Positions 26,368-53,261 of a DNA stretch of 64,000 nucleotides are shown here, one piece after another; position 1 is the first letter of the stretch, and each line of letters begins with the position of its first letter. The stretch spans positions 169,122 to 233,121 of the forward strand of contig CAYGTV010000002.1 of NCBI GenBank assembly GCA_964353135.1, in the 5' to 3' direction. Position numbers and translations under genes: made by a program. Below the pieces are notes generated by a model, which saw nothing but the letters and a program-made list of their open reading frames with translations, did not search any database and was not told where the DNA came from. This DNA is from an uncultured Candidatus Saccharibacteria bacterium (GTDB taxonomy: Bacteria > Patescibacteriota > Minisyncoccia > Phycocordibacterales > UBA918).

Positions 26368-26385
26368 TTTGCTAGACTAAAGTAT

Positions 26386-31851: not shown

Positions 31852-31892
31852 AAGAAAACAAATTTTGGACGAACTACTTTGTTGCGTTCACG

Positions 31893-31936
31893 AAAAAGAC
31901 CCTCGCTGGCCACCTGGCCCGTTCGGGTCTTTTTCG
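31893..31936 (+). terminator. Intrinsic terminator after rpsG (aaaaagaccc...gggtcttttt)
   Basis: Hairpin plus T-tract 40 bp after the rpsG stop. It separates rpsG from the downstream inserted genes. Confidence 0.6.
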
Positions 31937-31999
31937 TTCCGCGCCTCGTATTTCATTCCAAAATTTGATTTCTTTTAGTTAGCAAAGTATATTTTTTAC

Positions 32000-32515
32000 A
32001 TGGATCAAAACTATAATGGTGTGAAAATTGACGGTGTTTTATGGCTTCAAGAAGGACTTGATTGGGTGCCGTTGTGCTCGCGACATCATATGAGAATGCA
32101 AATGATGCATAATGACCAAAATTTCTCGTACTTGAAATGTGAAGAGTGTAAAGACTTCTATGAATTACCACGTGAGTTCAATGCTCAAAAAGAGTATATT
32201 TCAAATAAACTTGAAGCAAAAAAACTGAAAAAACTGAAATATATAAATATTGATGGTGAGCATATAGCTGTAGTTTCAGATAAAGTTAAAACAGCTGATG
32301 AAAAATACTTTGTTAAAGCCATCGTTACAGAATCAAAGACCGGCCCGGGAGTAGTCATTTATGCAGGAGAAACAGGCGGTCAAAAAATGCAGGCTTTTAT
32401 TGATCCAAATACAAAGAAATTATCTTTCGACCCAAGTGATAAGCATCCGGCCAAAGTCTTTGTTAAAATAGAAGCTGAATTTGATGACGGCCAGAAACAT
32501 TCAATAAAAAAATAA
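32000..32515 (+). CDS. Hypothetical protein with N-terminal Cys/His cluster (strongly AT-rich gene)
   Basis: 171 aa with CSRHH...C..C near the N-terminus and a Lys-rich region. The gene is much more AT-rich than its neighbours by eye. Confidence 0.45.
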   Translation: MDQNYNGVKIDGVLWLQEGLDWVPLCSRHHMRMQMMHNDQNFSYLKCEECKDFYELPREFNAQKEYISNKLEAKKLKKLKYINIDGEHIAVVSDKVKTADEKYFVKAIVTESKTGPGVVIYAGETGGQKMQAFIDPNTKKLSFDPSDKHPAKVFVKIEAEFDDGQKHSIKK

Positions 32516-32517
32516 AT

Positions 32518-32811
32518 ATGAAAATGCGACTGCATCCAGAGCCATTTAAGCGGATCAAATCAGGTGAGAAAAATATTGAGTGTCGGTTGAATGATGAAAA
32601 GCGGCGGCAGTTGTCGGTTGGAGATGCGGTCGTATTTGAAAACCGTGGTGATGGCGAGACTCTGGAGCGAACGGTGGTAGCGCTGCACACCTTCCCAGAC
32701 TTTGAATCAATGTTTGAAAAATTCCCCGGAGAAAGAATTAACGATGTTTATCAGTACTACACCCCAGAGGAAGAAAAAGAATGCGGAGTTATCGCTATTG
32801 AATTAAAATAA
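32518..32811 (+). CDS. ASCH-domain-like small protein
   Basis: About 95 aa with a beta-barrel ASCH-like pattern (RLHPEPFKRIKSGEKNIECRLNDEKR...GDAVVFE). Confidence 0.5.
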   Translation: MKMRLHPEPFKRIKSGEKNIECRLNDEKRRQLSVGDAVVFENRGDGETLERTVVALHTFPDFESMFEKFPGERINDVYQYYTPEEEKECGVIAIELK

Positions 32812-32816
32812 CCATC

Positions 32817-33941
32817 ATGCAAACACCACGATATGAATACTCGCGGACAGTGATCGCAGCGCGGATTACGGAACTGACTAATTTAGAACTGCCGTATGGG
32901 CTGGCGGTTCGCTATGCGATGAAGGCTAATCCGTTTCCGGAGATTTTGCAGATGATGCATGAGGGTGGGGTGCATTTCGATGCTAGTTCTAGTTACGAGG
33001 CTTCGCAGCTATTGCAGTTGGGTGTGCCAGGTTCACACATCTCGCTCTCGTCACAACAGTCACCCCACAATCTGCCGATGTTGTTAGCGGAGGGTGTGCA
33101 TTTTACTGCTACGTCAATGCGTCAGTTGGAACTGTTTTTAAATACACCAGATCGGCCAAACACAGTTGGGGTACGGATTAATCCTGACCTTGGGAGTGGG
33201 GCAAATAATCGCACCAATACTGGTGGTGTAAATGCTAGTTTTGGAATCTGGCACGAGTATATTCCCGACATTTTGAGTATGACGGCTGACGCCAGAGTAG
33301 TTGTCGATCACTTACACATCCACATTGGTTCAGGCGCTGACCCCAGCATCTGGGGTGAAGTGATGGAACGTTCACTCGATATGGCTCGTTTACTTGCCGA
33401 CGTCACCACACTCGACATCGGCGGTGGGTACAAAGTTGCGCGTTTCGGCGAAGAGCAGGAAGCTGACATGTTGGCTATAGCAGCCGTGTTTAAAGAAAAG
33501 CTAACAGTGTTTGCTGCGGAAACTGGAAGGGAACTGAAACTAGAAATTGAACCAGGCACGTATTTCATTGCTCACGCCGGAACTCTAGTTGCTGCTGTTG
33601 ATGATATTGTCGACACTGGGAAAAACGGCAACACATTCCTGCGACTTAATACTGGGATGAATGACTTTTTGCGTACTACGCTCTATGGCGCGCAACACAA
33701 GATAGAAGTCATAAATGAGCGTGAAAAGGAGGAGCAGTATATAGTGGTTGGTCATAACTGCGAGTCAGGTGACATTTTTACAACCAAGAAAGGTGACCCA
33801 GAAGTTATCGAACCTAGAGAATTAAAAACAGCAGCAATCGGTGACGAAGTCCGCATTTACGACACCGGTGCTTATTGTGCCAGTATGCGGGCGAAGGGAT
33901 ACAATGCGTTCCCAGATGCAGTTGAGATAATGGTTGATTGA
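32817..33941 (+). CDS. PLP-dependent decarboxylase, Orn/DAP/Arg decarboxylase family (diaminopimelate-decarboxylase-like)
   Basis: The PLP-lysine motif YAMKANP, HIHIGSG, EPGTYF and the C-terminal GAYCASM match the alanine-racemase-fold decarboxylases (LysA, ODC, NspC). Confidence 0.75.
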   Translation: MQTPRYEYSRTVIAARITELTNLELPYGLAVRYAMKANPFPEILQMMHEGGVHFDASSSYEASQLLQLGVPGSHISLSSQQSPHNLPMLLAEGVHFTATSMRQLELFLNTPDRPNTVGVRINPDLGSGANNRTNTGGVNASFGIWHEYIPDILSMTADARVVVDHLHIHIGSGADPSIWGEVMERSLDMARLLADVTTLDIGGGYKVARFGEEQEADMLAIAAVFKEKLTVFAAETGRELKLEIEPGTYFIAHAGTLVAAVDDIVDTGKNGNTFLRLNTGMNDFLRTTLYGAQHKIEVINEREKEEQYIVVGHNCESGDIFTTKKGDPEVIEPRELKTAAIGDEVRIYDTGAYCASMRAKGYNAFPDAVEIMVD

Positions 33942-34016
33942 AAAACTAAAAACGGTATAGTGATTCTGCGAAAGGCTGGGGTGCTCATGTAGTGTTCTAG
34001 TGAAAGTTGTATGATA

Positions 34017-34199
34017 CTCACTTTCGTAGTCGGTCATCTTGGCTGATAGGCTGGTCGGCGCGAATCGCGACCACGCTGCCATCGGGGTCTGGACTATACT
34101 CAGGCTCTATTGTTCAAAAAAGCCCTGCGGGGTGCACTGTGAACGTTGACCGCACCGGCGCAGGTTGTCTCCCACGACAACCTGCGCCTTTTCTTTTTT
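34017..34199 (+). repeat. ~183-bp direct repeat, copy A, ending in an intrinsic terminator (ggcgcaggttgtc tcccacg acaacctgcgcc ttttctttttt). Candidate sRNA or 3'-UTR element
   Basis: Near-identical to 35336-35507. It contains internal hairpins (ggtcggcgcgaatcgcgacc; ggtgc...gcacc) and a canonical terminator at 34157-34199. Confidence 0.6.
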
Positions 34200-34206
34200 C
34201 ATATAA

Positions 34207-34250
34207 ACAGTCTAAAACAAAACCCGCCCGCGAGATGTATCTCGCGGGCG
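34207..34250. terminator. Bidirectional hairpin terminator (aaaacccgcccgcgagatgtatctcgcgggcg...ttttt), member of a local terminator-repeat family
   Basis: Perfect stem with T-runs on both strands. Related copies occur at 34722-34765 and 36844-36889. Confidence 0.6.
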
Positions 34251-34258
34251 TGGTGTTT

Positions 34259-34654
34259 TTATGCGGGTAGTTCCTCTTTTCTGGTTTTGCTTTTCAGGGC
34301 GCAGTACAGACATGCATCCATGGCGTGTTCCATATACCAGTCGGGCATTTTCTTTTCGGTTTCTTCAATGATCAGATCTGCGGATTTGTTCCATTGCCCA
34401 GTCATCTCTGTTTCATCAGCGAGGACGATTTGCAGTTTAGTGCAAATACAATTGTCATGACCACGAGTGATTGTAAAGTGGATCACTTTGGGTTTGAATT
34501 CCGCTAGTTTTCCTCTAAGAGAAGTTCCGACTGGGGTTAATACTTTTTCGACTAGCAAGCTGATTGCTAGCAGACATTTTGCTTCAGAAAAGATTTTCTT
34601 CTCGCTAGTAGTGTTGCTGATTTTTGAGAGATCAAAAGTGATATCAGGCGGCAT
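34259..34654 (-). CDS. Hypothetical protein (131 aa; C-terminal H-x-x-x-A-C...C-x-x-C cluster)
   Basis: ORF between the two copies of the 183-bp repeat. It has the motif YMEHAMDACLYCALK. No confident family. Confidence 0.45.
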   Translation of the reverse strand: MPPDITFDLSKISNTTSEKKIFSEAKCLLAISLLVEKVLTPVGTSLRGKLAEFKPKVIHFTITRGHDNCICTKLQIVLADETEMTGQWNKSADLIIEETEKKMPDWYMEHAMDACLYCALKSKTRKEELPA

Positions 34655-34721
34655 TAGGCTTTCTCCGTAAGGTTCATCTTCGACTGGCTACAACCTACAC
34701 CTATAGAATCAATTTGTAAAC

Positions 34722-34765
34722 AAGACCCACCCGCCAGATTGCTCTGGCGGGCGGTTGTTTTTCAG
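34722..34765. terminator. Hairpin terminator (acccacccgccagattgctctggcgggcggttgttttt)
   Basis: Stem-loop plus T-run directly downstream of the minus-strand gene 34762-35208. Confidence 0.55.
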
Positions 34766-35208
34766 TGTCTGGAATATTGTGGTGGATTGAAGATAAACCA
34801 GACAAGGGCCACAACATTTGCCACCAACCACAACGGAAGTGCAATTGGCCAGACCAAACAAGCGGCCATTTTGCTCCATATCCACCACTTTGGTGGCATG
34901 AACAAATGCTCGTAGTCCTGATACCTTCGTTCTTTCAGAATCTGCTTGAATGATTTTTTGAGACCATGCATACCAGTCGTACTGTTGCCCATGTTGGCGT
35001 ATTTCTTGATCCATCCTCGGGCTCGCGTAATTCTAGCAATGTCGCCATGCCAGCCGGGTATAGAGCAGTGCAGATCGGTTCGCAGCATTTTCCAGTACAG
35101 CTTGCTTCCACCACCGCTGTCATAGAAAGCCCAACGGTACGTGAAATGGTACGAAATCAGAAAGGCGATTGGACTGGTCGCAAGCATAATCAAAATCCAG
35201 ATATTCAT
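34762..35208 (-). CDS. Hypothetical membrane protein (148 aa, Trp-rich)
   Basis: Hydrophobic segments lie at both termini. Second gene of the repeat-flanked cassette. Confidence 0.45.
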   Translation of the reverse strand: MNIWILIMLATSPIAFLISYHFTYRWAFYDSGGGSKLYWKMLRTDLHCSIPGWHGDIARITRARGWIKKYANMGNSTTGMHGLKKSFKQILKERRYQDYEHLFMPPKWWIWSKMAACLVWPIALPLWLVANVVALVWFIFNPPQYSRH

Positions 35209-35335
35209 CAGTATTCTCCCAAAGTTCTATTTGAGTCAAACTTATCCTGATTCCATTATTTTGTAAATAGTTTATAGTAATTCTACGAAAGGTTGATGTG
35301 TCAGAGTTGCGCCTCACTTCAAGATAGCGGAAACG

Positions 35336-35507
35336 CTCACTTTCGTAGTCGGTCATCTTGGCATGATAGGCTGGTCGGCGTGAATCGCGACCACGCTGCC
35401 ATCAGGGTCTGGACTATACTCAGGCTCTATTGTTCAAAAAAGACCTGCGGGGTGCACTGTGAACGTTGACCGCACCGGCGCAGGTTGTCTCCCACGACAC
35501 CTGCGCT
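35336..35507 (+). repeat. ~183-bp direct repeat, copy B (terminator stem degraded by a 1-nt deletion, weaker T-tract)
   Basis: About 97% identical to copy A by eye. It ends 20 bp before the ATG of ORF 35528. Confidence 0.6.
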
Positions 35508-35527
35508 TTCTGCTATATTTATAAAAT

Positions 35528-35962
35528 ATGAAACTGTATCACGCATCAAAGCATCGGTTCGATGTGATCAAACGAAGTCAGGCACAGCATCCGGCAGCTG
35601 ATGAGTTTGGTGTGCCAGCCGGTGAGCTACGAAACAAAATCTATTTCTCACCTAACTTTGGGTTTGCACTCGCGATGGCAGCTGGACCAAATGGCATGAC
35701 TAGCTTGAGCGACGGTCAGATTAGTTTTGAGCGACAAGATGAGTTTGATCCAGAGCGTCAGGTATATATCTACGAAATTGATTCAGAGCTGATTCCAGAG
35801 GAGTTGCTTGAACAAGTTGATGACGAACAGGTTGCTATTGATGCAGACGAAATCAAGCCAGAGGTTGTTCATGAAATGAAAGCAGAACAAGTGTTTGAAT
35901 ACTATGAGTTAACAGAATGGAAGCATCCTGATGAAAGAAAGAAAGAGATGAAGTTTATATAA
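35528..35962 (+). CDS. Hypothetical acidic protein (144 aa)
   Basis: ORF. No family recognised. Confidence 0.45.
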   Translation: MKLYHASKHRFDVIKRSQAQHPAADEFGVPAGELRNKIYFSPNFGFALAMAAGPNGMTSLSDGQISFERQDEFDPERQVYIYEIDSELIPEELLEQVDDEQVAIDADEIKPEVVHEMKAEQVFEYYELTEWKHPDERKKEMKFI

Positions 35963-36088
35963 AACAAAACTAACTCCGGAGGGCCGGCCTCCGGAAAATG
36001 GATAATTGTGCCCCTTTCCACAATTGCATCGTACTGGGTACGGGTGTATAAAATGAATGGGAGGTCTTTCTAGTTTTGGAGTAGACTA

Positions 36089-36781
36089 ATGACGCATTTG
36101 ATTTCACGACGTCGGTTTGTTGCTACTGGTGCAGCATCACTCTGTAGCCCCACTGTGTTACGTGGTGGTGTAACAAAGATTGAGCTTAACCTGATGCTTG
36201 ATTGCTCAGGTAGTATGTTCAAAACTGCTATCCCGGGTATCAGTAGTTCGATACCCTCGGATAAATACCAAGTGCAGCGAGATGGACATGCGGAAGGCCT
36301 ACTGTCTGTAGAAGTCCGCGAGTTTCTGCAATGGCACAAGGTCCACGTTCGGGTGTATGGCTGGTCCAATATTCCGGTACTGCACTGTGAACGAGTGGTG
36401 GAAAGTTTCGCCGATGTTGACTGGCTGGCAGTGCAGGTAGCAGGAATGGATCTATACGATCGTTTGTCTGCCGGCGCAACGCTACATGATCAAGCTGTCG
36501 ATCCGTTTACGCTTCCTCCGCCTTTGGGAATCAGACGGGTTATCGACATCTCGACCGACGAGCCACCTTGGTCGGAACGGATAGATCTGTGCCTGAGTTC
36601 TCGTGATTTGATCTACGGTGCACGCGGAACGGTCAATGTCTTGGCAATTAATCCTACCCCTGAAATGCATCGATCGTTACTCGACTCACTCGTGACACCT
36701 GACGGTTTCATAGAGGAAGCAAAGGGTCTTGGTGACTATCACCGAGCGATCAAAGCCAAGCTTATTGGTGAGTTGCTATAA
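36089..36781 (+). CDS. vWA-like protein with a twin-arginine (Tat) signal peptide (possibly DUF1194-type)
   Basis: N-terminal SRRRFVATGAASL is a Tat consensus (S-R-R-x-F-V). MIDAS-like DxSxS (LMLDCSGSM) directly follows the signal. Confidence 0.55.
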   Translation: MTHLISRRRFVATGAASLCSPTVLRGGVTKIELNLMLDCSGSMFKTAIPGISSSIPSDKYQVQRDGHAEGLLSVEVREFLQWHKVHVRVYGWSNIPVLHCERVVESFADVDWLAVQVAGMDLYDRLSAGATLHDQAVDPFTLPPPLGIRRVIDISTDEPPWSERIDLCLSSRDLIYGARGTVNVLAINPTPEMHRSLLDSLVTPDGFIEEAKGLGDYHRAIKAKLIGELL

Positions 36782-36843
36782 AAAGCCGAGCGTCCGGATA
36801 GTAATCTAATCCGGGCGTTTCTGACTAGAGCCCTTATATAACA

Positions 36844-36889
36844 AAACCCGCCAGCGATGTGTCTCGCAGGCGGGGCTTTCTTTTTGAGC
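36844..36889. terminator. Bidirectional hairpin terminator (aaaacccgccagcgatgtgtctcgcaggcgggg ctttcttttt)
   Basis: Member of the same sequence family as 34207-34250. It lies between convergent genes. Confidence 0.55.
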
Positions 36890-36896
36890 AGGAGTT

Positions 36897-37058
36897 TTAT
36901 TCGCCGGCACATTGTGGGTACTTTGTGACTAGTTCCGCATAGTGCATCCGCCTCACTTCATCGCCTCGGGCTTTCCTGTCTTCAGGATCTAACCCTTGTT
37001 CATCTAGCCACTCGAGAATATTTTCGCGAAGTGTTTGGGTTTCAGGGGTGTCAGTCAT
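36897..37058 (-). CDS. Hypothetical small protein (~53 aa from MTDTPETQ)
   Basis: Short ORF upstream of a terminator. Weak support. Confidence 0.3.
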   Translation of the reverse strand: MTDTPETQTLRENILEWLDEQGLDPEDRKARGDEVRRMHYAELVTKYPQCAGE

Positions 37059-37068
37059 GTTCGTACTC

Positions 37069-37425
37069 CTAAACTTGGGTTGAAACCAGAAACATAAACC
37101 AGATTTCATCTGATAAAGGGTCAGGCGTTATTTCATAAAGAACGAAACTTTGAAAGTCTTGCAGACTAACTATCCATACCCGACCACCTTCTGGTCGTTT
37201 GCTTTTAAGAAACCTGCAATCACGTGGGAGCCTGTCTAGATTGAAGCCATCTTCAGGATTGTAGGCCGATTGCATTGCCGTGGTGACTGATATTTTGCGT
37301 TCGCAAACAAGCATGCCTGGTATTAGAACTTGGATTGGGTCACCAAAGACTTGTTTATCTTGCGCCTGAGCCGGAATACCAAGTAGTAGCAATCCGACAA
37401 GTAGTGCGTGGAATATGTGCTGCAT
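37069..37425 (-). CDS. Hypothetical secreted protein (signal peptide ...GIPAQA/QD)
   Basis: N-terminal Sec signal with an AxA cleavage site. 118 aa. Confidence 0.45.
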   Translation of the reverse strand: MQHIFHALLVGLLLLGIPAQAQDKQVFGDPIQVLIPGMLVCERKISVTTAMQSAYNPEDGFNLDRLPRDCRFLKSKRPEGGRVWIVSLQDFQSFVLYEITPDPLSDEIWFMFLVSTQV

Positions 37426-37519
37426 CGGTTGCTCCTTTCAGCGATCTGTTCCACTAAAAATATGCCTTTTGGAACACAAAATTGCAAGTCATGGTCCGCT
37501 AATTTGTTACACTACAAAC

Positions 37520-38077
37520 ATGCAATACGAACAAATGAAACTTGGTGAAGTCTTACGATTTTGGTTTGAAGAACTAACACCAGAGCAGTGGTTTGCTGGT
37601 GGGGAAGAACTAGATGCAAAAATCAAAGAACGATTTTCTGACATTCATACTCAGGTGGCAGCTGGTGAGTTTTGGGAGTATCGGACCGACGCCCACGCGT
37701 ACCTGGCAGAAGTGATTGCGCTGGATCAGTTTTCACGCCAGATGTTTCGGGGGAGTGCAGAGGCGTTTGCCTACGATGGTATGGCACTAACACTTGCACA
37801 GCATGCAATTGCAGCTGGCTTTGACCAGCAATTGGACCAGTCTGAACGACAATTCTTATATATGCCGTTTATGCACTCGGAGTCAAAACAGATTCACGCT
37901 GCAGCAGTGCCATTGTTTGAGTCACTTGGCGAGCCTGAAGTCATCAAGTACGAGCACATCCACAAAGACATCATTGATCAGTTTGGTCGGTACCCGCATC
38001 GTAACCAAATGCTCGGGCGAGAATCGACTGCAGAAGAAACAGACTACCTAGCCAACAATCAAGAAAGCTTCTTTTAA
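37520..38077 (+). CDS. DUF924-family protein
   Basis: The conserved N-terminal LRFWFE...PEQWF and the central and C-terminal HRNQ-LGRESTAEE pattern are typical of DUF924. Confidence 0.6.
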   Translation: MQYEQMKLGEVLRFWFEELTPEQWFAGGEELDAKIKERFSDIHTQVAAGEFWEYRTDAHAYLAEVIALDQFSRQMFRGSAEAFAYDGMALTLAQHAIAAGFDQQLDQSERQFLYMPFMHSESKQIHAAAVPLFESLGEPEVIKYEHIHKDIIDQFGRYPHRNQMLGRESTAEETDYLANNQESFF

Positions 38078-38109
38078 ACCATATTCTTAAAATTTGCTAC
38101 ACTACATAC

Positions 38110-38655
38110 ATGAAACACTTTAACTATATTTTCCTTGGAGTAATGATGGTTGTTGTATTGGGTGCGATGTATCTCTGGCTGGCAGAAACAGCCGAAGCTC
38201 CAATGCTAGAGGAGGGAGTGATGTGTACCGCTGATGCAATGGAGTGTCCTGATGGTTCGTTTGTGGGACGACAAGGTCCAAACTGTGAGTTTGCAGAGTG
38301 TCCGGCTCCGGCAGAAACAGCCGAGACAAACCAAATGATCCAGGTCGCTTCACCGCAACCAGGCGACACAGTTAGTAGTCCGCTACAACTAACGGGACAA
38401 GCTACCGGACTTTGGTTTTTTGAAGCATCTGCCCCAGTTGTGGTCGAAGACACAAATGGCAATGTGTTAGGGCAAAGCTATGTTACAGCCCAAGGTGACT
38501 GGATGACAACGAATTTTGTATCGTTCAGCGGCAACATTTCGTTCAACGTCCCAGCGGGGGTAACTAACGGATTTATAATTTTCAAAAAAGATAACCCGTC
38601 TGGCGAACCACAATTTGATGATGAGTTGGCGGTGCCAGTACAATTTGCTCCGTAG
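38110..38655 (+). CDS. Secreted protein with a Cys-rich segment plus Gmad2-like Ig-fold domain
   Basis: A signal or anchor is followed by CTADAMECPDGS...CEFAECP and then an SPQPGDTVSSPLQLTGQATG...FEASAPVVVED pattern resembling Gmad2 immunoglobulin-like domains. Confidence 0.5.
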   Translation: MKHFNYIFLGVMMVVVLGAMYLWLAETAEAPMLEEGVMCTADAMECPDGSFVGRQGPNCEFAECPAPAETAETNQMIQVASPQPGDTVSSPLQLTGQATGLWFFEASAPVVVEDTNGNVLGQSYVTAQGDWMTTNFVSFSGNISFNVPAGVTNGFIIFKKDNPSGEPQFDDELAVPVQFAP

Positions 38656-38661
38656 CAAGGT

Positions 38662-39162: not shown

Positions 39163-39171
39163 GTATTTGCC

Positions 39172-39648: not shown

Positions 39649-39674
39649 TAATTTTAATCAGTTCTTTTGTACCT

Positions 39675-40730: not shown

Positions 40731-40735
40731 TAAAC

Positions 40736-40770
40736 AAAACCGACACGAGCACTGCTCGCGTCGGTTTTGT
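40736..40770. terminator. Bidirectional terminator (aaaaccgacacgagcactgctcgcgtcggtttt)
   Basis: Hairpin between convergent genes. Confidence 0.6.
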
Positions 40771-40785
40771 GTATGTTGGTAGCAA

Positions 40786-41511: not shown

Positions 41512-41723
41512 AGGAATCGACTTTATGAATAACCTCTCTTGTATTATACGCCCGCTGCAATTAAAAAAAGCAAATTATCAGAACAGTGCTGTTTTGCGTA
41601 GGTTGCACCCTACGAGCACTGCTACTTTATATCCCAGGGCACCCTCTCTTGATTCCAAGAAATCAATTCACCTTGTGTTCCTTTCAGTCACTAAAGTAGG
41701 TTGCATAGTGGAGCTTATGAGGT

Positions 41724-43223
41724 ATGCTGTCCCCCATGAACCAACGAGATGGAATTATCGTATTTAAGGACGTATCGTTTGAACACGATGCAACCAAACC
41801 GATTTTAAAAGAAGCTAGTTTTGTGGTGCGTCGTGGGGCCAAGTTCACCCTGATGGGGCAAAATGGAGCTGGGAAATCTACTCTATTTGGGCTTATTACT
41901 GGTAAAACTCAGCCGGACGAAGGAAGTATCAACCTGCAACCTAGGACAACCATCGCAGTATCGCGACAGATCATTCCTCGGGATGAGCTGGAACTAACGG
42001 TGCGGGCGTTTTTTGAGAAATGTTTCACCGAAAAAATGTATGACATTGATCCAAAAATTGATGAAGTTCTAGAGGTGGTAAACCTAGTTCCACCAGAATC
42101 ACAAACCGAATCATTTAAAGACCGTATCATCGGTAGTTTCTCTGGCGGTCAGCAAGCGCGGTTACTTTTGGCATCAGCCCTGATCCAAAACCCAGATGTA
42201 CTTTTGCTCGACGAGCCAACCAACAACCTCGATACAGCTGGGATCGAGCACCTGACAGAATTTCTTCGCGAGTACAAGAAAACAGTTATCGTTATTTCCC
42301 ACGATGCTGACTTCCTCAACTCATTTACTCAAGGAGTTTTGTACCTCAACACGCAAAACCGACAGGTTGAGCAATATAACGGTAACTACCACACAGTAGT
42401 AGAAGAGATCGCAGCTCGAGTTGAAAAGGAGAAGCGTCAAAACGCGCAGATGAACAAGCAGATCCAAGCTGACAAAGACAAGATCAACTACTTTGCAGCC
42501 AAGGGAGGAAAGATGCGTTTAGTTGCTAAAAAGATGCGGGCTGAAATTGAAGAAGCAGAAGAGAACAAAATCGATGTACGACGTGAAGATAAAGCCATCC
42601 GTCCGTTTACAATCGAACCGCACGGCGACATTCCTCTTGAAGTCATAAAATTAACTTCACTAACAGTGATTAGGGATCATCAGCCAAAACAAGTAGCGTG
42701 TGACATTACTCTAAAACGAGGGGAGCATCTACAGATTGTTGGTCCAAACGGAATTGGAAAAACAACTCTGCTTGAAAGCTTGGCTGGAGGAACTGCGACT
42801 GGAGAAGAGGTGGCAAAAGGGGTCAAGATTGGTTATTACCGACAAGACTTCTCTAACCTTGATTTCAATAAATCAGTGTTTGAAACCTTGATGGACAGTA
42901 TGAAGAAAAAGTTAGAAGAAGACATGCGTTCAATTGCCGCAGGGTTCCTTCTCTTTGGAGACGTGATGAAATCAAAAGTAGGCGACCTCTCAGAAGGACA
43001 AAAAGGACTAGTGGCATTTGCAAAGTTGCGGATGGAAGAACCAGGACTACTGATTCTCGACGAGCCGACTAACCACATTAACTTCCGTCATATTCCAGTG
43101 ATCGCGCAAGCACTCAATGAATATAAGGGGGCAATGATCCTGGTGTCTCACGTTCCAGAATTTGTAGAACAAATCAGGATTGATGATGTGTTGGACCTCA
43201 GTAAACTAAAACCGAAGAAATAG
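41724..43223 (+). CDS. ABC-F family ATPase (tandem ABC domains, no TMD; translation or ribosome-associated type)
   Basis: Two Walker A motifs (GQNGAGKST, GPNGIGKTT), two LSGGQ signatures (FSGGQQARL, LSEGQKGLV) and an inter-domain linker. Confidence 0.85.
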   Translation: MLSPMNQRDGIIVFKDVSFEHDATKPILKEASFVVRRGAKFTLMGQNGAGKSTLFGLITGKTQPDEGSINLQPRTTIAVSRQIIPRDELELTVRAFFEKCFTEKMYDIDPKIDEVLEVVNLVPPESQTESFKDRIIGSFSGGQQARLLLASALIQNPDVLLLDEPTNNLDTAGIEHLTEFLREYKKTVIVISHDADFLNSFTQGVLYLNTQNRQVEQYNGNYHTVVEEIAARVEKEKRQNAQMNKQIQADKDKINYFAAKGGKMRLVAKKMRAEIEEAEENKIDVRREDKAIRPFTIEPHGDIPLEVIKLTSLTVIRDHQPKQVACDITLKRGEHLQIVGPNGIGKTTLLESLAGGTATGEEVAKGVKIGYYRQDFSNLDFNKSVFETLMDSMKKKLEEDMRSIAAGFLLFGDVMKSKVGDLSEGQKGLVAFAKLRMEEPGLLILDEPTNHINFRHIPVIAQALNEYKGAMILVSHVPEFVEQIRIDDVLDLSKLKPKK

Positions 43224-43238
43224 TTGGTAAAAATATAC

Positions 43239-43268
43239 AAAAGCGCGACCCTTCAGGGTCGCGCTTTG
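43239..43268. terminator. Bidirectional terminator (aaagcgcgaccc ttca gggtcgcgcttt)
   Basis: Perfect 12-bp stem between convergent genes. Confidence 0.7.
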
Positions 43269-43278
43269 GTTGTATTAC

Positions 43279-44811
43279 CTATACGATCAGCAAGTATGTA
43301 CAGGCTGCCGCAAGCACTGCTATGTGCAGAATTAATACTTTCTTTTCTTCCCATACTGGTTTTGTAATTAGGAAGTATTGTGTGAGACCAGCTAGGAGTA
43401 GCGCGGGTAGGAGGTGGGGCTCAGGGATGATCCAATAGAAAGACAGGTATGCAAGTAGAAAAGAAATCCCGATAATTATTTTTGCCTTTTCCATACCGAG
43501 CACAACTGGCAGTGTTTTGATTCCAGCTTGCTTGTCTCCCTCGTAGTCTTTCAAATCAATAAAGCTAAATGCCATGGTAAAGAAAATGAGAAACGTTGGA
43601 ATCAGTGCGGACGGGACAAAAAACGTTGGTTCCTCGACCAGGAAAGTATAGCCAGACGTCACTACTGTTAGACAAATAAAAGCTAGAAGTCCTTTTGATA
43701 CAATGAGCACCCTTTTTATCCGCAGTGGCGGGGCTGAGTATATAAAGTAACCAGCGATGTATACCAGCATAAGAAATAGGTGTTCAAAACTTACTAACGC
43801 CGCCGCTACAATTGATACGCAAAGTGTCCACCAAGCGACTGCGCGGTACAAAACTGGGTCAAACGCTTGGCTCACTGTGAGTCGACCTGGTGTCGAGACA
43901 CAATCAATTTCAACGTCTTCTAGGTTATTGATTGCCACTGAAAATATCCAAGCACCGGTGATACTGATTATCACTAGTATCCATGAAAGTAGTGTGTCAG
44001 GTTGAACTAAACCGCTGGGTGCTACATCCGCAAAATAGACTGATAGACAGACACCAAATACAAATAAAAGTTGGAAGTGAATCCAGCGCAATGGTCTGAT
44101 TTCTTTCACAATCTCAATAACGTAGGTGGCGTCCGCCCGATAGGCTACATACAAACTCATACCGACCGCTATAAGAAAAAATATAGGTGTTAAAGGAACG
44201 GTTTTGGGGTCAACTGACCAACCTAGTTGATTCCCGATTGCTGTTACAACTGCAGGTAAAGAAACGTAGATGAAAATAGTTGTGTACATCAGCAGTGTGC
44301 CTGCCAGCGCGGTAACAATAGAACGAGTTTTTGTATAGAAGAACCAAAGTGACCCTAGGAGTATCAGCACCATAGCTGTTCGCATTCCAATAGTGATGCC
44401 AAACTCTGTAATTGGGCCAAAGAAAGTCAGATACATTCCAAGCAAAAATTCTGGATCCATAATGTAGGCAATTTTTTGTCCCCCAGGACCAAAGGCAAGG
44501 AGGTCAACCGTAGGTGGAATAAGAATAATTAAAAATAGCGGCACTATAAGTCGTAGTGTGGCTTGTACCGAATCCTTGGTAATAATTAGAAACAGGGCAC
44601 AAAATGTTGCAGCTAGTGCGACATAGGACAGAATATAATGGATTAAGTGCTCGAGGTTGAACTCATGCTGACTAGAGTACAACTCAAGAAAATTTCTAAC
44701 GAGCGTGATACTTGCAAACGTAATCATAAGGTACGTTAATGAAACCGGCGTTTGCTGAATTGTGTCGATCAGTCTTGTAAGCCAGTGGTTCAGTTGAGTT
44801 ATGTGTTTCAT
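43279..44811 (-). CDS. Large polytopic membrane protein with a C-terminal UbiA-prenyltransferase-like domain
   Basis: 510 aa with more than 12 TM segments. The C-terminal half carries Asp-rich motifs of the UbiA superfamily (DLKDYEGDKQAGIKTLPV). Confidence 0.5.
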   Translation of the reverse strand: MKHITQLNHWLTRLIDTIQQTPVSLTYLMITFASITLVRNFLELYSSQHEFNLEHLIHYILSYVALAATFCALFLIITKDSVQATLRLIVPLFLIILIPPTVDLLAFGPGGQKIAYIMDPEFLLGMYLTFFGPITEFGITIGMRTAMVLILLGSLWFFYTKTRSIVTALAGTLLMYTTIFIYVSLPAVVTAIGNQLGWSVDPKTVPLTPIFFLIAVGMSLYVAYRADATYVIEIVKEIRPLRWIHFQLLFVFGVCLSVYFADVAPSGLVQPDTLLSWILVIISITGAWIFSVAINNLEDVEIDCVSTPGRLTVSQAFDPVLYRAVAWWTLCVSIVAAALVSFEHLFLMLVYIAGYFIYSAPPLRIKRVLIVSKGLLAFICLTVVTSGYTFLVEEPTFFVPSALIPTFLIFFTMAFSFIDLKDYEGDKQAGIKTLPVVLGMEKAKIIIGISFLLAYLSFYWIIPEPHLLPALLLAGLTQYFLITKPVWEEKKVLILHIAVLAAACTYLLIV

Positions 44812-44863
44812 TAACGTGATTATACTAAAAATTATAATAAGTAATGCACTCTGCTACACTAGT

Positions 44864-45136
44864 TTCATGAAGGCAACTCGTCACTACGTTTATGTTTTAC
44901 ATTGTTCTGACGGAACATTTTATTGTGGATACACCACAGACGTTGAACGTCGTGTTCAGGAGCATAACGGAGAGGGGAAAGTAGCTGGGGCCAAGTACAC
45001 CAATGGTCGACGGCCAGTGCAAGTAGTCCACACTGAATCTTTTGCCACTAGAAGTGAAGCGCAAAAACGTGAAGCAGAAATTAAAAAAATGTCTCGTCAA
45101 GAAAAGGAGAAGTGGTACACTGCTAGTAATAAATAA
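44864..45136 (+). CDS. GIY-YIG nuclease family protein (UPF0213/YhbQ-like)
   Basis: YVYVLHCSDGTFYCGYTTDVERRVQEHN...KYT.GRRP matches the small standalone GIY-YIG family. Confidence 0.8.
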   Translation, partial: FMKATRHYVYVLHCSDGTFYCGYTTDVERRVQEHNGEGKVAGAKYTNGRRPVQVVHTESFATRSEAQKREAEIKKMSRQEKEKWYTASNK

Positions 45137-45165
45137 ACAATACGTATGTTAGAAAATTTAAAGGC

Positions 45166-45585
45166 ATGTTTAGTGAGGCTAAAAAAGTAGAGCAGGCTCC
45201 AAATGCTGTGGAGCTACCACCTGCATCTGCCGTTGAAGAAATGGAAAACCTACTAGATTATTCTGGCGAGTTATCACCCGATCAAAAAGACCGGCTGGCT
45301 GAGTTACAAGATCAGTTAGAAGAAAAGGCAGATGAACTTGCTTTAGAATCAGTAAAAAACCGAATCAATCCAATTTCAGCTGCTCAAACAGGTCGACTGA
45401 ATGTGGTAGATAAAGAAGTATCCCCGTATGCTCCGATTGAGGCTGCAGGACCTGTGATTCTAAAAGAGTCACAGGTGTTATATCCGGGAGCAGACCCAAC
45501 ACCACATAAGCCAGTGGCAGAAAAAGATGTTGTAGATTTAGGAAAGCGCTCAGGGAATCCTTATGGTTTCCCAGAAATGAAATAG
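45166..45585 (+). CDS. Hypothetical acidic protein (139 aa)
   Basis: ORF followed by a hairpin terminator at about 45600-45636. Confidence 0.45.
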   Translation: MFSEAKKVEQAPNAVELPPASAVEEMENLLDYSGELSPDQKDRLAELQDQLEEKADELALESVKNRINPISAAQTGRLNVVDKEVSPYAPIEAAGPVILKESQVLYPGADPTPHKPVAEKDVVDLGKRSGNPYGFPEMK

Positions 45586-45727
45586 TCAGTCTCTGAAAAT
45601 AAAAACACTAGTACTCATCTGCTAGTGTTTTTATTTTACAAAACTGTGTACAAAAAACTTTTTCATAATTACTGGTTGTATAATTATGTCAGGACACGAA
45701 TTACGTGTGAGAGTAAATTATTTTAAT

Positions 45728-45952
45728 ATGGCAACAAAAAAACCAGCAGCGAAAAAAGCTGCACCAAAGAAAAAACCAGTAGCAAAAAAAGTCGTTAAGA
45801 AAACAGTAAAAGTAGCTGCTAAAAAAGTAGCTCCAAAAAAGAAAGCTGTAAAGAAAGCTGTACCAAAGAAAAAGGTAGCAGCTAAATCTACTAAAAAAGT
45901 AGTTAAGAAAGCGGCTCCAAAAAAGAAGACAGCAGCAAAGAAAAAGAAATAA
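45728..45952 (+). CDS. Histone H1-like, Lys/Ala-rich basic protein (KKAAPKKK repeats)
   Basis: A 74-aa product made almost entirely of AKK/PKKK repeats. The mirrored antisense ORF is a translation artefact of the same repeat. Confidence 0.65.
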   Translation: MATKKPAAKKAAPKKKPVAKKVVKKTVKVAAKKVAPKKKAVKKAVPKKKVAAKSTKKVVKKAAPKKKTAAKKKK

Positions 45953-45956
45953 ATTA

Positions 45957-45983
45957 AAAGCGACACCAGTATGTGTCGCTTTT
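45957..45983 (+). terminator. Intrinsic terminator (aaaagcgacac cagtat gtgtcgctttt)
   Basis: Directly after the Lys-rich gene. Confidence 0.7.
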
Positions 45984-46033
45984 AATTTGTATTAGTGAAT
46001 GTATAATTAGGCTGTCGCGAATAATTTTTATAT

Positions 46034-46102
46034 ATGCCAAAAGGCCAAGATCGAAAAAAAGAAGTCAAAAAACCAAAGAAAGATAAACCAGTAAAGAAGT
46101 AA
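46034..46102 (+). CDS. Possible 22-aa very basic micro-protein (MPKGQDRKKEVKKPKKDKPVKK)
   Basis: Not in the ORF track. It sits between two terminators and is followed by the hairpin at 46111-46136. Speculative. Confidence 0.2.
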   Translation: MPKGQDRKKEVKKPKKDKPVKK

Positions 46103-46110
46103 TAAAACAA

Positions 46111-46140
46111 AAAGAGTGCCAAGAGGGCACTCTTTTTGCA
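46111..46140. terminator. Bidirectional terminator (aaagagtgcc aagag ggcactcttttt)
   Basis: Downstream of the minus-strand oxidoreductase-DedA gene. Confidence 0.7.
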
Positions 46141-46153
46141 TGATAACTAGAAC

Positions 46154-48178
46154 CTACTTTTTATTAAATAGTTTTGATACGCCAAGTGAGGCGATGAAAA
46201 TAAATGTTGCGAGAATTAGAAATTCGGTTTGCAGAATACTGAAACTAAAACCGTTCTGAATGAATTGTTCCAGGTCGAGTGATGCTCCGATTGAAACAAA
46301 GGTCGCGGTTCCCAAAATGATTCCAAAGAACGTCGCGATCGTGAACGGTACAAATGGAACCCGGAGAATCCCGGCTGCATAGCTAACTAGGTCAAACGGT
46401 AGGAAAATCAGACGCATGGTCAGCATACTTGTAAACGTGTTTTCTCGCAGAGCTGTAACCCAATTCCCCAGAGCACTATTTTCTAACTTCAGACCCTTAC
46501 CAAAAAAGCGACCAACTGCGTACGCGACACCAGCTGCAAGTGTTGCTGCGATAACAGTGAGAACCGTTCCCCAGATCAAGCCAAAGAAAACACCAGACAA
46601 AATAGTCAGCGCAGTAGCAGGGAAGAAGGTCACTGGACGAATGGCGTACAGGGCGATGTATACCAACGGTCCCCAAATAGTCATGGTGATAAATTCAAAC
46701 AAACGCACCGATGTTTCGGTGTTAGTCAGGCCAGTAGTTATTTGATATTGATTGAGTGCAAAGAGAGTCCCGACCCAAATAGCAGCTGCGATGATTTTTG
46801 GTGATTGTCTTTTGAGGGCTTTTTTTAGATCAACTTTCAGGTCACTAATTTGTCGGCCGACAAATTGATCGGCGGCTTTTTTTACAATTAAACTGTAGGT
46901 AGGGTAAGCAAAAATTGTTTTCTGCAATTTCAAAAGAGAAATATTTTGATCAATTGCCAGTGTAAAGACATTAAGGATTTCGCCAGCCGCTGGTCCAGCT
47001 ATATGAGCGCCCAAAACTTTTCCGCTAATCCGTTTTGCAATCACTACCAATACTCCATTTGTGGCGTCGTCGGTTTTGGCTCGGTCATTGTGTGCGAACG
47101 GAACTTCGATGCGCATGATTCGGTCCGCTCCATATTGATCAATCGCATCATGGAAGTGAAGTCCGACCTGGGCAATTTCTGGCGTTGTGTAGGTGACTTT
47201 GGGAACTGATTTGTTTGTATTAATTTTCAAAAAACCTTTACTAGTTACGCGGGTAACTACTTGTCGCGCGATGTCGTTCGCCATATGGGTGAACTTTAGT
47301 CGCTGCGCAACATCACCAACTGCGTACACTCGTTTATTGTTTGTTTGAAACTGACTGTTTACAGTTACTCCGTATTGGGAAGATTCAATTCCAGCTGACT
47401 CTAACCCGGCCGGAATATTCGGTACTCGACCGATTGCGATCAGAACTTTGTCGAACTCAACTGTGAAACTGTGTTCTGTTTGTTCACTTCGCATCTGATC
47501 AAAATGTGCGACATTTCCTTCGACCTTTTTAATTGCCGCACCGGTATGAATTGTAATCCCAAGTCCTTCAAACGTCTGCCGGATGATCGGTTGAATCGCT
47601 TTGTCTTCTAGTCGGGCGAACTGCTCACCTTGTTCGGCTATGGTCACCTGCGAGCCTAACATCGTAAACGCCTGGGCCATCTCCATCCCGATTGGTCCGC
47701 CACCGATGATCAGTAGTTTTTCAGGAACATCTTGTAGGTTAAAAATATTTTGGTTGGTCAGAATATAATCCTCGCTTAGTCCATCAATCTCAACCATGCG
47801 TGGACTGGAACCAGTTGCAATGACGGCAGTTTTGAATGTGTAGGTGGTATCCAAAACGGTGATTGAATGTTTGCTGGCAAACGTTGCCTCCCCCATCACG
47901 ACATCGATACCCAGGTTTTGAAATGTTTCCGGGGTTTCTTCTGCGAGGATACTATCAACCACGTTTCGCACATATGAAAATGCGTCGGATCCAGACATGC
48001 CTTTTTTGGCAGCGTGTAACAATGCTTTGCTTGGGACGCAACCGGTGTTGGTACATTCACCACCCATGTGTTCACGCTCTACGAGTAGAACTTTTTTACC
48101 AACTTTGAAAAAACCAACCGCCGCCGTGAGTCCGCCTGATCCGGCGCCGATAACAACTACATCGTACTGAGTCTTCAT
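46154..48178 (-). CDS. FAD-dependent pyridine-nucleotide-disulfide oxidoreductase fused to a C-terminal DedA/TVP38-family membrane domain
   Basis: N-terminus: GAGSGG FAD motif plus redox-active disulfide TNTGCVPSK (Lpd/MerA/glutathione-reductase class) and a C-terminal dimerisation region. The C-terminal ~200 aa is polytopic, resembling DedA. Confidence 0.75.
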   Translation of the reverse strand: MKTQYDVVVIGAGSGGLTAAVGFFKVGKKVLLVEREHMGGECTNTGCVPSKALLHAAKKGMSGSDAFSYVRNVVDSILAEETPETFQNLGIDVVMGEATFASKHSITVLDTTYTFKTAVIATGSSPRMVEIDGLSEDYILTNQNIFNLQDVPEKLLIIGGGPIGMEMAQAFTMLGSQVTIAEQGEQFARLEDKAIQPIIRQTFEGLGITIHTGAAIKKVEGNVAHFDQMRSEQTEHSFTVEFDKVLIAIGRVPNIPAGLESAGIESSQYGVTVNSQFQTNNKRVYAVGDVAQRLKFTHMANDIARQVVTRVTSKGFLKINTNKSVPKVTYTTPEIAQVGLHFHDAIDQYGADRIMRIEVPFAHNDRAKTDDATNGVLVVIAKRISGKVLGAHIAGPAAGEILNVFTLAIDQNISLLKLQKTIFAYPTYSLIVKKAADQFVGRQISDLKVDLKKALKRQSPKIIAAAIWVGTLFALNQYQITTGLTNTETSVRLFEFITMTIWGPLVYIALYAIRPVTFFPATALTILSGVFFGLIWGTVLTVIAATLAAGVAYAVGRFFGKGLKLENSALGNWVTALRENTFTSMLTMRLIFLPFDLVSYAAGILRVPFVPFTIATFFGIILGTATFVSIGASLDLEQFIQNGFSFSILQTEFLILATFIFIASLGVSKLFNKK

Positions 48179-48243
48179 AAAATAAAAATAGTCACTTAGT
48201 GTTTTAAGTATATACGAATGCGTAACATTTTTGTTTCATATAA

Positions 48244-48272
48244 AAGACCCCGCCACTGAATGATGGCGGGGC
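48244..48272 (-). terminator. Intrinsic terminator for ORF 48292-48612 (ccccgcc...ggcgggg followed by tcttttat on the minus strand)
   Basis: Seen in the sequence. Confidence 0.55.
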
Positions 48273-48291
48273 CGGGGACAGATGTCCGATG

Positions 48292-48612
48292 TTACTTTGT
48301 TGCGGCCTGATTGGCTTGCAGTGCCAGCACTTCTTGCATCATAGCACTGCTGATTGCCACAGTCATGCTGTAGTCATCTGCCACTTCAAAGCTGATGATG
48401 CGAACACCAGCGGCGGTTTCCTTGACCATTGCCATCCGTGTTTCTGGCACGGCTGTGCAAGGAATTTCAACGTCAACTGCTTCGATCGACAAGCAGTCAC
48501 TACCTGCCCAGTACAGGTCAAACGGGTCGCGTAGCTCATTGATCGACTCTGCCCCAGCTTGTGTTGCAAGCAAGGCAGTCACGGTGATAGCTGAAAAGAT
48601 CGTTGGTCGCAT
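48292..48612 (-). CDS. Small secreted protein (signal peptide ...TQAGA/ES)
   Basis: 106 aa with an N-terminal Sec signal. Confidence 0.45.
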   Translation of the reverse strand: MRPTIFSAITVTALLATQAGAESINELRDPFDLYWAGSDCLSIEAVDVEIPCTAVPETRMAMVKETAAGVRIISFEVADDYSMTVAISSAMMQEVLALQANQAATK

Positions 48613-48843
48613 GGGGGGTCTCCTTTAATGCGTTGCGCAGGCAGTATGCCGTGGCATGTCTAATTTAATAACATTAAAATTTAACTATGTCAAATAAAAT
48701 GCCTCTGTTTTGCGTTGCGTAAGAGTGGTAATTCCTATATAGTAGCGCCATCTTGCCTTCGGGCTTTTTCTCATCTACTCCTAGCACGAGCTGAACGAGA
48801 AGGGATTTATTAAAATTTATACATATATAAGTACAAGCATTTT

Positions 48844-51090: not shown

Positions 51091-51133
51091 AGCAGTGTCT
51101 ATATGGTGGTGACTTGGTATTATGAAAGTACGT

Positions 51134-53248: not shown

Positions 53249-53261
53249 AAATCTAAAAAAT

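Follow-up and report, generated by a model that had tools for sequence, protein, structure and literature searches.

Introduction

The genes rpsL, rpsG, fusA and tufA lie together in the classical str operon of Escherichia coli and most bacteria. Interruptions among translation genes have been described by Brandis, Cao and Hughes (2019), who reported small multigene insertions between the operons of the translation supercluster in Gammaproteobacteria; these insertions carry no mobility genes, their origin was left unexplained, and selection to keep the operons concatenated was argued for that class (PMC6735719). Many hotspots of horizontal gene transfer have also been found to lack mobile genetic elements (MGEs), with homologous recombination taking place at the flanking core genes, and naturally transformable bacteria carry a disproportionate share of such MGE-free hotspots (Oliveira et al., 2017; PMC5635113). 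Here, we analyse the interval between rpsG and fusA in a 64,000-nucleotide stretch of DNA (the window) from an uncultured Candidatus Saccharibacteria bacterium (contig CAYGTV010000002.1 of assembly GCA_964353135.1). A preliminary description, made from the sequence alone, had noted a 17-kb block of non-ribosomal genes at this position and had read it as a compositionally heterogeneous hotspot of horizontally acquired cargo, with an assembly chimera as the alternative. The block is real: the gap from rpsG to fusA, which starts at 48844, measures 16,992 bp and contains about 21 non-ribosomal open reading frames (ORFs) on both strands, seven of them on the minus strand.

This interruption very probably reflects an ancient division of the str operon that is specific to one lineage, a family-level, Kaiserbacteria-like clade of Patescibacteria, in which an inherited scaffold of genes is combined with short segments that gain and lose genes. 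About 25 relatives share the order and orientation of the backbone genes, so that the block, taken as a whole, has been inherited and is not recent cargo. Genes truly turn over at three places only, namely the interval between rpsG and a GH15-like gene, the insertion of a single UbiA-family gene and a two-gene cassette flanked by copies of a repeated element, R.

Conservation of the locus in relatives

A metagenome scan was carried out with the GH15-like protein, whose gene lies in the middle of the block so that flanks of 10 kb reach both ends, and yielded 80 metagenome loci with identities of 97-71% (loci and contigs are designated below by L and a number). Every contig long enough to judge, about 25 in all, shows the same order: M50-rpsL-rpsG, a variable segment, GH15-(h241)-ABC-F-GIY-YIG, a second variable segment that includes a gene for an H1-like protein, then PyrDedA (an oxidoreductase-DedA fusion, on the minus strand) and fusA. 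Across these collinear contigs the identity ranges from 94 to 73% for EF-G and from 97 to 73% for GH15. The M50-rpsL-rpsG flank is collinear in all of the long relative contigs, and the rpsG-fusA interval of the clade relatives measures 7.4-14.7 kb. A further scan with EF-G, using one genome per species, matched metagenome-assembled genomes (MAGs) of Patescibacteria exclusively, the best matches being a MAG at 87%, Candidatus Kaiserbacteria RIFOXYD1_FULL_42_15 at 77% and two further MAGs at 75%.

Collinearity with the nearest relative, L082 (S7 98%, EF-G 94% and about 80% nucleotide identity), extends over 24.3-51.6 kb of the window and is interrupted by three indels, which comprise 31963-37500, the SKI gene and the UbiA gene. 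About 7 kb of the block differs from L082, which has 9-10 of the 21 block ORFs; a homologue or remnant at the same locus was found in some member of the clade for 16 of the 21. Even the nearest relatives have diverged from the window almost to saturation at synonymous sites (proportion of synonymous differences, pS, 0.61-0.80 for GH15, ABC-F, DUF924 and PyrDedA), and the shared gene order is therefore old.

The ABC-F ATPase, by family match an EttA-like or ribosomal-protection-like translation factor, is 75-95% identical in relatives, and in Kaiserbacteria L002 its gene directly adjoins fusA, 440 bp upstream of it. PyrDedA is 54-77% identical; its gene immediately precedes fusA in all cases and is encoded on the minus strand. 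The GIY-YIG gene is present in about 20 relatives and the H1-like gene in 12, while h241 has matches in 20 loci (36-57% identity), always between GH15 and ABC-F.

Composition, mobility signatures and assembly

Composition was judged by sub-blocks only, there being too few 17-kb placements outside the block for a test of the whole; each sub-block was compared with 400 segments of the same length from outside the block in GC content, Karlin dinucleotide signature and tetranucleotide distance. The GC content is 0.444 for the block and 0.464 for the rest of the window (0.459 for the window as a whole). All sub-blocks are ordinary in the three tests except 44867-46153 (GC 0.379), which holds the GIY-YIG, h139 and H1-like genes. 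Because the GIY-YIG and H1-like genes are common to relatives, the AT-richness of this sub-block is attributed to AAA/AAG lysine codons and AT-rich spacers and not to foreign origin. At the level of single genes, GC at third codon positions (GC3) and synonymous-codon likelihood, referred to 43 genes outside the block, fall inside the range of those genes for 17 of the 21 block ORFs; the exceptions are the Cys/His-rich ORF (GC3 z = -2.1), h139 (-2.2), the H1-like gene (-3.6) and c148 (+2.3).

In composition and codon use the block is thus native and essentially uniform, and the heterogeneity seen by eye in the preliminary description was not borne out by sliding GC, tetranucleotide and codon checks. 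The segment at 34-38 kb that had been called GC-rich has a GC content of 0.456-0.497, the mean over 1-kb windows being 0.458 ± 0.026 and the highest value elsewhere 0.512. The AQA-type signal peptides that had been noted for that segment also occur outside the block, for example in the ORF at 6164-7030. The AT-rich start of the block does exist, with a GC content of 0.35 at 32.0-32.5 kb; an equally AT-rich stretch lies outside the block at 1.5-2.75 kb. Near-uniform composition and relatives that share the locus together largely dispose of the block as foreign cargo.

No integrase, transposase, recombinase or phage domain was found in any block ORF with Pfam, and the ten ORFs without an assigned function gave no match in PHROG or PADLOC; the readings as a prophage remnant and as a defence island were both rejected for want of such matches. 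There is no tRNA or tmRNA anywhere in the 64-kb window and no Rfam family at the gathering threshold in the window. No direct repeats were found at the block boundaries, the sole long direct repeat being internal (34017 and 35336). Searches with tblastn gave no match for the DUF1194 protein in plasmids or for the Cys/His-rich ORF in phages, and a proteobacterial-plasmid or phage source of these two genes could not be shown.

Independent support for the assembly came from a protein search with DUF1194, which led to the Logan assembly of run ERR3534985. Three of its contigs, L165, L166 and L161, are 100% identical to window positions 31768-34114, 34150-35434 and 35470-46781, respectively. The first of these crosses the left junction; the third, a 13,434-bp contig starting at 35470, is expected to reach about 48.9 kb, past the start of fusA, its identity having been checked to 46781. 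The Logan assembly breaks only inside a 35-nt stretch that is identical in both copies of the internal repeat, and single-nucleotide polymorphisms (SNPs) specific to each copy phase the order decarboxylase-R1-cassette-R2-h144. Both flanks and the block are collinear with L082, L088, L089 and contigs from other samples. The assembly chimera that had been raised is excluded by these three lines of evidence, the reach across the right junction being the expected one.

Transcription units

The terminator that had been proposed to close rpsL-rpsG was recovered as a hairpin followed by a T-run. Ten members of the clade retain the hairpin despite sequence drift, and 11 of its 17 pairs show compensatory changes (window 31880-31945 and nine relatives), which argues that transcription stops after rpsG throughout the clade. 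Within the block, 29 terminator-like sites were counted, compared with 17.6 ± 3.8 expected, and a bidirectional terminator follows ABC-F. From the predicted intervening terminators and the genes on the opposite strand, fusA is judged to be a separate transcription unit.

Three terminator hairpins of the variable segment resemble each other at 72-83% identity (AACAAAACCCGCC...GGCGGG; 34213-34241, 34716-34744 and 36837-36865); such terminators could have been copied along with modules. Many genes of the window carry a -10-like box (TAnnnT, often TGnTAcACT) that ends 6-8 nt before the ATG, and no Shine-Dalgarno (SD) motif (examples lie at 37508-37522, 38098-38112, 44855-44869, 26370-26388 and 59143-59157), which suggests that the box-led genes are transcribed into leaderless mRNAs. 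A GGAG-type SD motif was found at 11 of 65 window genes, mostly those of secreted or membrane proteins, an observation made post hoc on small numbers. The presence of SD motifs as a sign of foreign origin (c131, c148, DUF1194, s118 and s106; Fisher p = 6e-5, post hoc) was not accepted; the SD genes outside the block likewise encode secreted or membrane proteins.

Layout of the interval

The features of the interval and its flanks are listed in Table 1, in which the earlier gene calls for the block proved correct by Pfam and NCBIfam. The Cys/His-rich ORF (CysHis171), ASCH and the pyridoxal phosphate (PLP) decarboxylase are tightly packed and belong to the variable segment (32000-33941), while DUF924, Gmad2, SKI, h158 and GH15 form a co-oriented run (37520-40730). 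GH15 is the first universally conserved backbone gene after rpsG.

Table 1. Features of the rpsG-fusA interval and neighbouring regions (window coordinates unless a contig is named)
Feature	Position	Strand	Assignment and remarks
ComEC	26386-27948		ComEC-type competence channel; Competence and DUF4131 domains
M50	29861-30529		M50 peptidase gene upstream of rpsL
rpsL	30807-31220	+	Pfam Ribosom_S12_S23; left flank
rpsG	31375-31851	+	Pfam Ribosomal_S7; left flank
rpsG terminator	31890-31937	+	Intrinsic; hairpin and T-run; inverted-repeat search and terminator scan
CysHis171	32000-32515	+	Cys/His-rich 171-aa ORF; GC 0.35
ASCH	32518-32811	+	Pfam/NCBIfam
PLP decarboxylase	32817-33941	+	LysA-like, Orn/DAP type; Pfam/NCBIfam
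R1 with leader-1	33944-34198	+	Structured element, first copy
Leader-1	33944-34016		Part of R1
R1 core	34026-34158		134-nt core
R1 terminator hairpin	34157-34198		Part of R1
Direct repeat	34017-34190 and 35336-35509		175 nt; about 97% identical
Cassette terminator	34225-34250		Bidirectional
c131	34259-34654	-	Cassette ORF
c148	34762-35208	-	Cassette membrane protein
Leader-2	35221-35335		Upstream region in cassette
R2	35336-35512	+	Second copy of the structured element
R2 core	35345-35478		
R core in L088	6407-6539		L088 coordinates
R core in L085	6494-6627		L085 coordinates
h144	35528-35962	+	Conserved hypothetical protein
DUF1194	36089-36781	+	Pfam DUF1194; RRRF twin-arginine N-terminus
s118	37069-37425	-	Small secreted protein
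DUF924	37520-38077	+	Pfam
Gmad2	38110-38655	+	Pfam
SKI	38662-39162	+	SKI-type kinase (shikimate-kinase fold); Pfam
h158	39172-39648	+	
GH15	39675-40730	+	GH15-like, short protein; Pfam; backbone
h241	40786-41511	-	Fast-evolving hypothetical
ABC-F	41724-43223	+	Pfam ABC_tran x2 and ABC_tran_Xtn; NCBIfam ribo_prot_ABC_F; backbone
ABC-F terminator	43240-43267		Bidirectional
UbiA	43279-44811	-	UbiA-family prenyltransferase; Pfam UbiA
GIY-YIG	44867-45136	+	Nuclease-domain protein; Pfam GIY-YIG
h139	45166-45585	+	
H1-like	about 45728-45952	+	Lys/Ala-rich protein
PyrDedA	46154-48178	-	FAD/NAD(P) disulfide oxidoreductase fused to DedA/VTT; Pfam Pyr_redox_2, Pyr_redox_dim, VTT_dom; backbone
s106	48292-48612	-	Small putative secreted ORF; SD motif and own terminator; unique to this genome
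fusA	48844-51015	+	EF-G; right flank
fusA-tuf insert	51122-55741		708-aa secreted beta-propeller-like protein; ORFs of 410 and 264 aa
rpsJ-rplC insert	57672-60246		Four hypothetical ORFs

In the left flank, S12 comprises 137 residues and is 93-98% identical in relatives; Pfam aligns residues 40-135 only, and the protein appears to have about 13 extra residues in its N-terminal third relative to E. coli S12, a feature that the relatives share. The ComEC gene lies 3 kb upstream of rpsL and bears on the idea that DNA uptake and homologous recombination drive cassette exchange.

Gene turnover between rpsG and GH15

In all long contigs of the clade, a variable interval lies between rpsG and GH15; it measures 511-7823 bp among relatives, has differing gene sets and changes rapidly between close relatives. 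L082 has a 113-aa ORF, DUF924, Gmad2 and h158 here; in L088 the interval holds R and h144 together with genes for a membrane protein, a ClpP-like protein and others; L085 has the order h144-ASCH-ITPase-like-R; and L087 holds unrelated genes, including Schlafen-like and CYTH-like ones, and a remnant of the PLP decarboxylase. Most genes that seemed confined to the window recur at this locus in another member of the clade. The order rpsG-CysHis171-ASCH is also found in L171 at 81% nucleotide identity and ASCH also in L083-85; DUF924, Gmad2 and h158 occur in L081, L082 and L088; and the order SKI-h158-GH15 is kept in the distant members L152, L157 and L147. The sole homologue of the DUF1194 protein (49%) comes from the corresponding locus of L162, where the genes run DUF924-DUF1194-...-h158-GH15.

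Two remnants of the decarboxylase persist at the locus, a 75-aa N-terminal stump in L087 (5622-5921) and a 27-aa fragment in L143 (2498-2578), so that part of the variation is loss in relatives and not gain in the window. Several block genes look ancestral and differentially lost. For c131, s118, h139, s106 and UbiA, no homologue was found at the locus in any relative searched, and c131 and s118 had no homologue anywhere searched.

The UbiA gene is a window-specific single-gene insertion of 1.6 kb between ABC-F and GIY-YIG, which are separated by a spacer of 48-60 bp in the four nearest relatives (L082, L087, L088 and L089). No target duplication was found at its junctions. The protein has about 250 extra N-terminal residues with predicted membrane segments, and its nearest full-length homologues, at 33-38% identity, come from a contig of the Candidate Phyla Radiation (CPR), where the gene adjoins rpoBC, and from an archaeal-looking contig. 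The latter (L169; CAZHUM010000006.1) also encodes a CTP-dependent riboflavin kinase and an archaeal-type tRNA deacylase domain next to UbiA; since these neighbours look archaeal, the family with the long N-terminus would be common to CPR bacteria and archaea.

The R element and its cassette

The repeat-flanked cassette of the preliminary description was confirmed as two genes, c131 and c148, enclosed by a 175-nt repeat in a unit of about 1.3 kb. The 134-nt core of this repeat, R, is nearly invariant, with a mean column identity of 94% over the two copies of the window and those of L088 and L083-85, compared with 68-80% for neighbouring coding DNA; R1 as a whole is 84-90% identical in nucleotide sequence to the copies in those relatives. 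On the plus strand R is predicted to fold into a four-way junction with a terminator after it (z = -5.2), and the consensus structure has covariation support from one compensatory pair only. Reading frames are not conserved across the copies and the element is non-coding. No Rfam family matches R at the gathering threshold; at E <= 10 there were only chance matches of terminator type, the best of which, a terminator-only one to SR6_antitoxin, scored 22 bits (cutoff 55). A covariance model run over 86 loci (0.87 Mb) recovered only the six known copies, which represent four distinct sequences and sit at different positions in different relatives. R is a candidate for a new small structured RNA or for a recombination patch.

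Two other identities were considered for R. A phage attachment site was dropped, as a 22-nt invariant stretch of the element had no match in viral contigs. A riboswitch for h144 was rejected as the principal interpretation: R2 ends 16 nt before the h144 start codon, but R precedes h144 in only two of four contexts, and a separate -10-like box for h144 lies downstream of the R terminator.

The cassette genes c131 and c148 have SD motifs and no Pfam, PHROG or PADLOC match. A homologue of c148 (70%) occurs in L143 and has there, as its upstream region, the sequence that lies between c148 and R2 in the window. An integron-like cassette array was rejected, as there is no integrase and one cassette only.

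The neighbouring gene h144 follows R here and in L088, and its product is 90% identical in L088 and 70% identical in L084/85. Between the window and L088 the pS of h144 is 0.52, compared with 0.74-0.79 for neighbouring genes, and non-coding R plus leader is 90% identical. Because the module is less diverged from L088 than its neighbours, R and h144 may have been exchanged within the clade, as the sequences suggest. The core SNPs of R1 match L088, while R2 has unique core SNPs and an L088-like 3' junction to h144, the pattern that one crossover should leave. If a circle of about 1.3 kb with one R and the cassette had entered a resident R by a single (Campbell-type) crossover, the arrangement R1-c131/c148-R2 would result.

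Junctions across the Patescibacteria

Gaps between adjacent genes of the ribosomal cluster were surveyed in 63 Patescibacteria species with both genes in view, the denominators being lower at later junctions. In these bacteria the cluster is routinely broken at three specific junctions: rpsG/fusA (median 173 bp, above 1 kb in 9/63, maximum 7.4 kb; window 16,992 bp), fusA/tuf (median 1.6 kb, above 1 kb in 32/58, maximum 9.2 kb; window 4,991 bp) and rpsJ/rplC (median 190 bp, above 1 kb in 13/49, maximum 4.8 kb; window 2,874 bp). No gap above 1 kb was seen at rpsL/rpsG (0/63; median 31 bp, maximum 637 bp; window 154 bp) or at tuf/rpsJ (0/56; median 84 bp, maximum 735 bp; window 25 bp). The rpsG/fusA inserts of other lineages are unrelated to that of the window, have no genes in common from lineage to lineage, and include a 2010-aa protein, a pilin-like protein and small toxin-antitoxin-like pairs. 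The 410-aa ORF of the fusA-tuf insert recurs after fusA in L001, L002, L089, L094 and L097.

The proposal of a hotspot for horizontal cargo is in part sustained by these data: genes turn over between rpsG and GH15, the R and h144 module shows a sign of exchange, and the same junctions are filled across the phylum. It does not extend to most of the 17 kb, which is inherited.

Alternative explanations

That the whole 17 kb is a recent, horizontally acquired island in an otherwise intact str operon would fit the length of the interval, which at 17.0 kb is the longest seen (7.4-14.7 kb in the clade and at most 7.4 kb in other Patescibacteria), the mutually unrelated functions of its genes and a GC content slightly below that of the rest of the window. 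About 10 kb in the same order and orientation in some 25 relatives with saturated synonymous sites, native composition and codon usage, an rpsG terminator conserved across the clade and the lack of any integrase, transposase, tRNA or boundary repeat in the block or window make such an island highly improbable. A mis-join at the left junction (about 31.9 kb), the right one (about 48.8 kb) or both has a vanishingly small probability; the source is indeed a metagenome-assembled genome and the internal 175-nt repeat could mislead an assembler, but Logan contigs identical to the window cross the left junction and are expected to cross the right one (checked to 46781), the SNPs phase the order of decarboxylase, R copies, cassette and h144, and L082 and many contigs from other samples run collinearly through both junctions. 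A large ancestral accessory block with no lateral input, in which all differences arose by lineage-specific deletion and divergence, is a more substantial competitor. The decarboxylase remnants in L087 and L143 are in keeping with it, as are the native composition throughout and the recurrence at the locus, each in some relative, of SKI, DUF1194, c148, ASCH, h144 and CysHis171, and CPR genomes are generally described as shaped by loss (PMC7304191). Against it stand the UbiA gene, without a homologue at the locus and placed in what is a spacer of 48-60 bp in the four nearest relatives, the lesser divergence of the R and h144 module, the duplication of R around the cassette, which is a gain, the differing module orders (h144-ASCH-ITPase-R in L085 and ClpP-like-R-h144 in L088) and the unrelated genes that other Patescibacteria lineages carry at the same junction, and we consider it rather unlikely.

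Placement of the scaffold genes might instead be adaptive, with ABC-F in particular kept near fusA for co-regulation on account of a tie to translation. ABC-F proteins are ribosome-binding translation factors, 440 bp separate the gene from fusA in Kaiserbacteria L002, and the scaffold order is very stable. In most relatives, however, ABC-F is 2.4-6.3 kb from fusA with opposite-strand genes in between and has its own terminator, low rearrangement rates alone would also give a stable order, and we know of no link to translation for GH15, GIY-YIG or the oxidoreductase-DedA fusion; adaptive placement is decidedly unlikely. Several points also weigh against an inherited scaffold with small-scale turnover. 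A foreign origin is possible for c131, s118, h139, s106 and UbiA, and a GGAG-type SD motif is present in four of the five ORFs without a homologue as well as in c148 and DUF1194. The mean GC content of the block is slightly but significantly below that of the remaining window, also when the 45-46.5 kb stretch is left out (0.451 versus 0.463, Mann-Whitney p = 0.01). The low pS of h144 rests on 144 codons in one genome pair, and codon constraint could give the same signal. The terminators and promoters are predictions, promoter rules for CPR bacteria not being established, and it is from the sequences that we infer a Campbell-type origin of the cassette.

An old split with an inherited scaffold nevertheless accounts best for the locus. 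In such a split, rpsL-rpsG would end at its own conserved terminator and fusA would form a separate unit, with the GH15-like, h241, ABC-F, GIY-YIG, H1-like and oxidoreductase-DedA genes passed on vertically between them. Short segments, chiefly the rpsG-GH15 spacer, would gain and lose genes without recognisable mobile machinery through three processes: differential loss of older genes, as the decarboxylase remnants indicate; exchange of small modules, such as R with h144, among related lineages; and recombination at the conserved 175-nt structured element, which may have produced the c131/c148 cassette. The recombination mechanisms are those that we infer from these patterns. On general grounds, weak selection for co-transcription in slow-growing CPR cells with small genomes would make the junctions permissive. 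A more ambitious proposal, which we regard as unlikely, is that the terminator-bounded rpsG/fusA, fusA/tuf and rpsJ/rplC junctions act as preferred, MGE-free landing sites for DNA taken up by natural competence, with the adjoining, highly conserved ribosomal genes serving as homology arms across diverged lineages. Within the spacer, R would then double as an undescribed small RNA and a movable patch of homology by which small cassettes are captured and shuffled, R1-c131/c148-R2 being one capture. The evidence on R and on ribosomal genes as recombination anchors is thin.

The practical consequence for annotation and binning is that neither misassembly nor an island should be assumed when the str operon of a CPR genome is interrupted by 17 kb. 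The block is a marker of its clade, and the order rpsG-GH15-ABC-F-...-fusA could help to place fragmentary contigs. The rpsG-GH15 interval offers a small, well-bounded place in which to study how CPR bacteria without recognisable mobile elements lose genes, exchange modules and capture cassettes.

Comparison with known systems

Compared with the classical str operon, the window keeps the order and orientation of rpsL, rpsG, fusA, tuf, rpsJ and rplC but has lost their contiguity, with gaps of 17.0 kb (rpsG-fusA), 5.0 kb (fusA-tuf) and 2.9 kb (rpsJ-rplC). A conserved terminator stands after rpsG, seven ORFs of the block are on the minus strand, and a loss of co-transcription is predicted. As in a classical genomic island, a large block of unrelated accessory functions breaks a conserved neighbourhood; unlike such an island, it has no tRNA, integrase or boundary repeat, is native in composition and is present in relatives.

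The nearest parallels are the insertions of the Gammaproteobacteria and the MGE-free hotspots. With the former the window shares genes that have no association with mobility and that lie among collinear translation genes (PMC6735719); it differs in that its insertion falls inside a classical single operon, is much larger (7-17 kb), belongs to the Patescibacteria and is clade-wide, with one edge turning over. The ribosomal cluster here tolerates a long-lived interruption at three junctions, contrary to the strong collinearity seen in fast-growing Gammaproteobacteria (PMC6735719). Like the hotspots of Oliveira et al. (PMC5635113), the rpsG-GH15 interval lies between persistent genes, spans 0.5-7.8 kb, holds varied families and has no recognisable MGE, and the window encodes ComEC. 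The likeness is confined to this sub-interval and does not cover the 17 kb; a sign of transfer is seen in one module, and much of the variation resembles differential loss.

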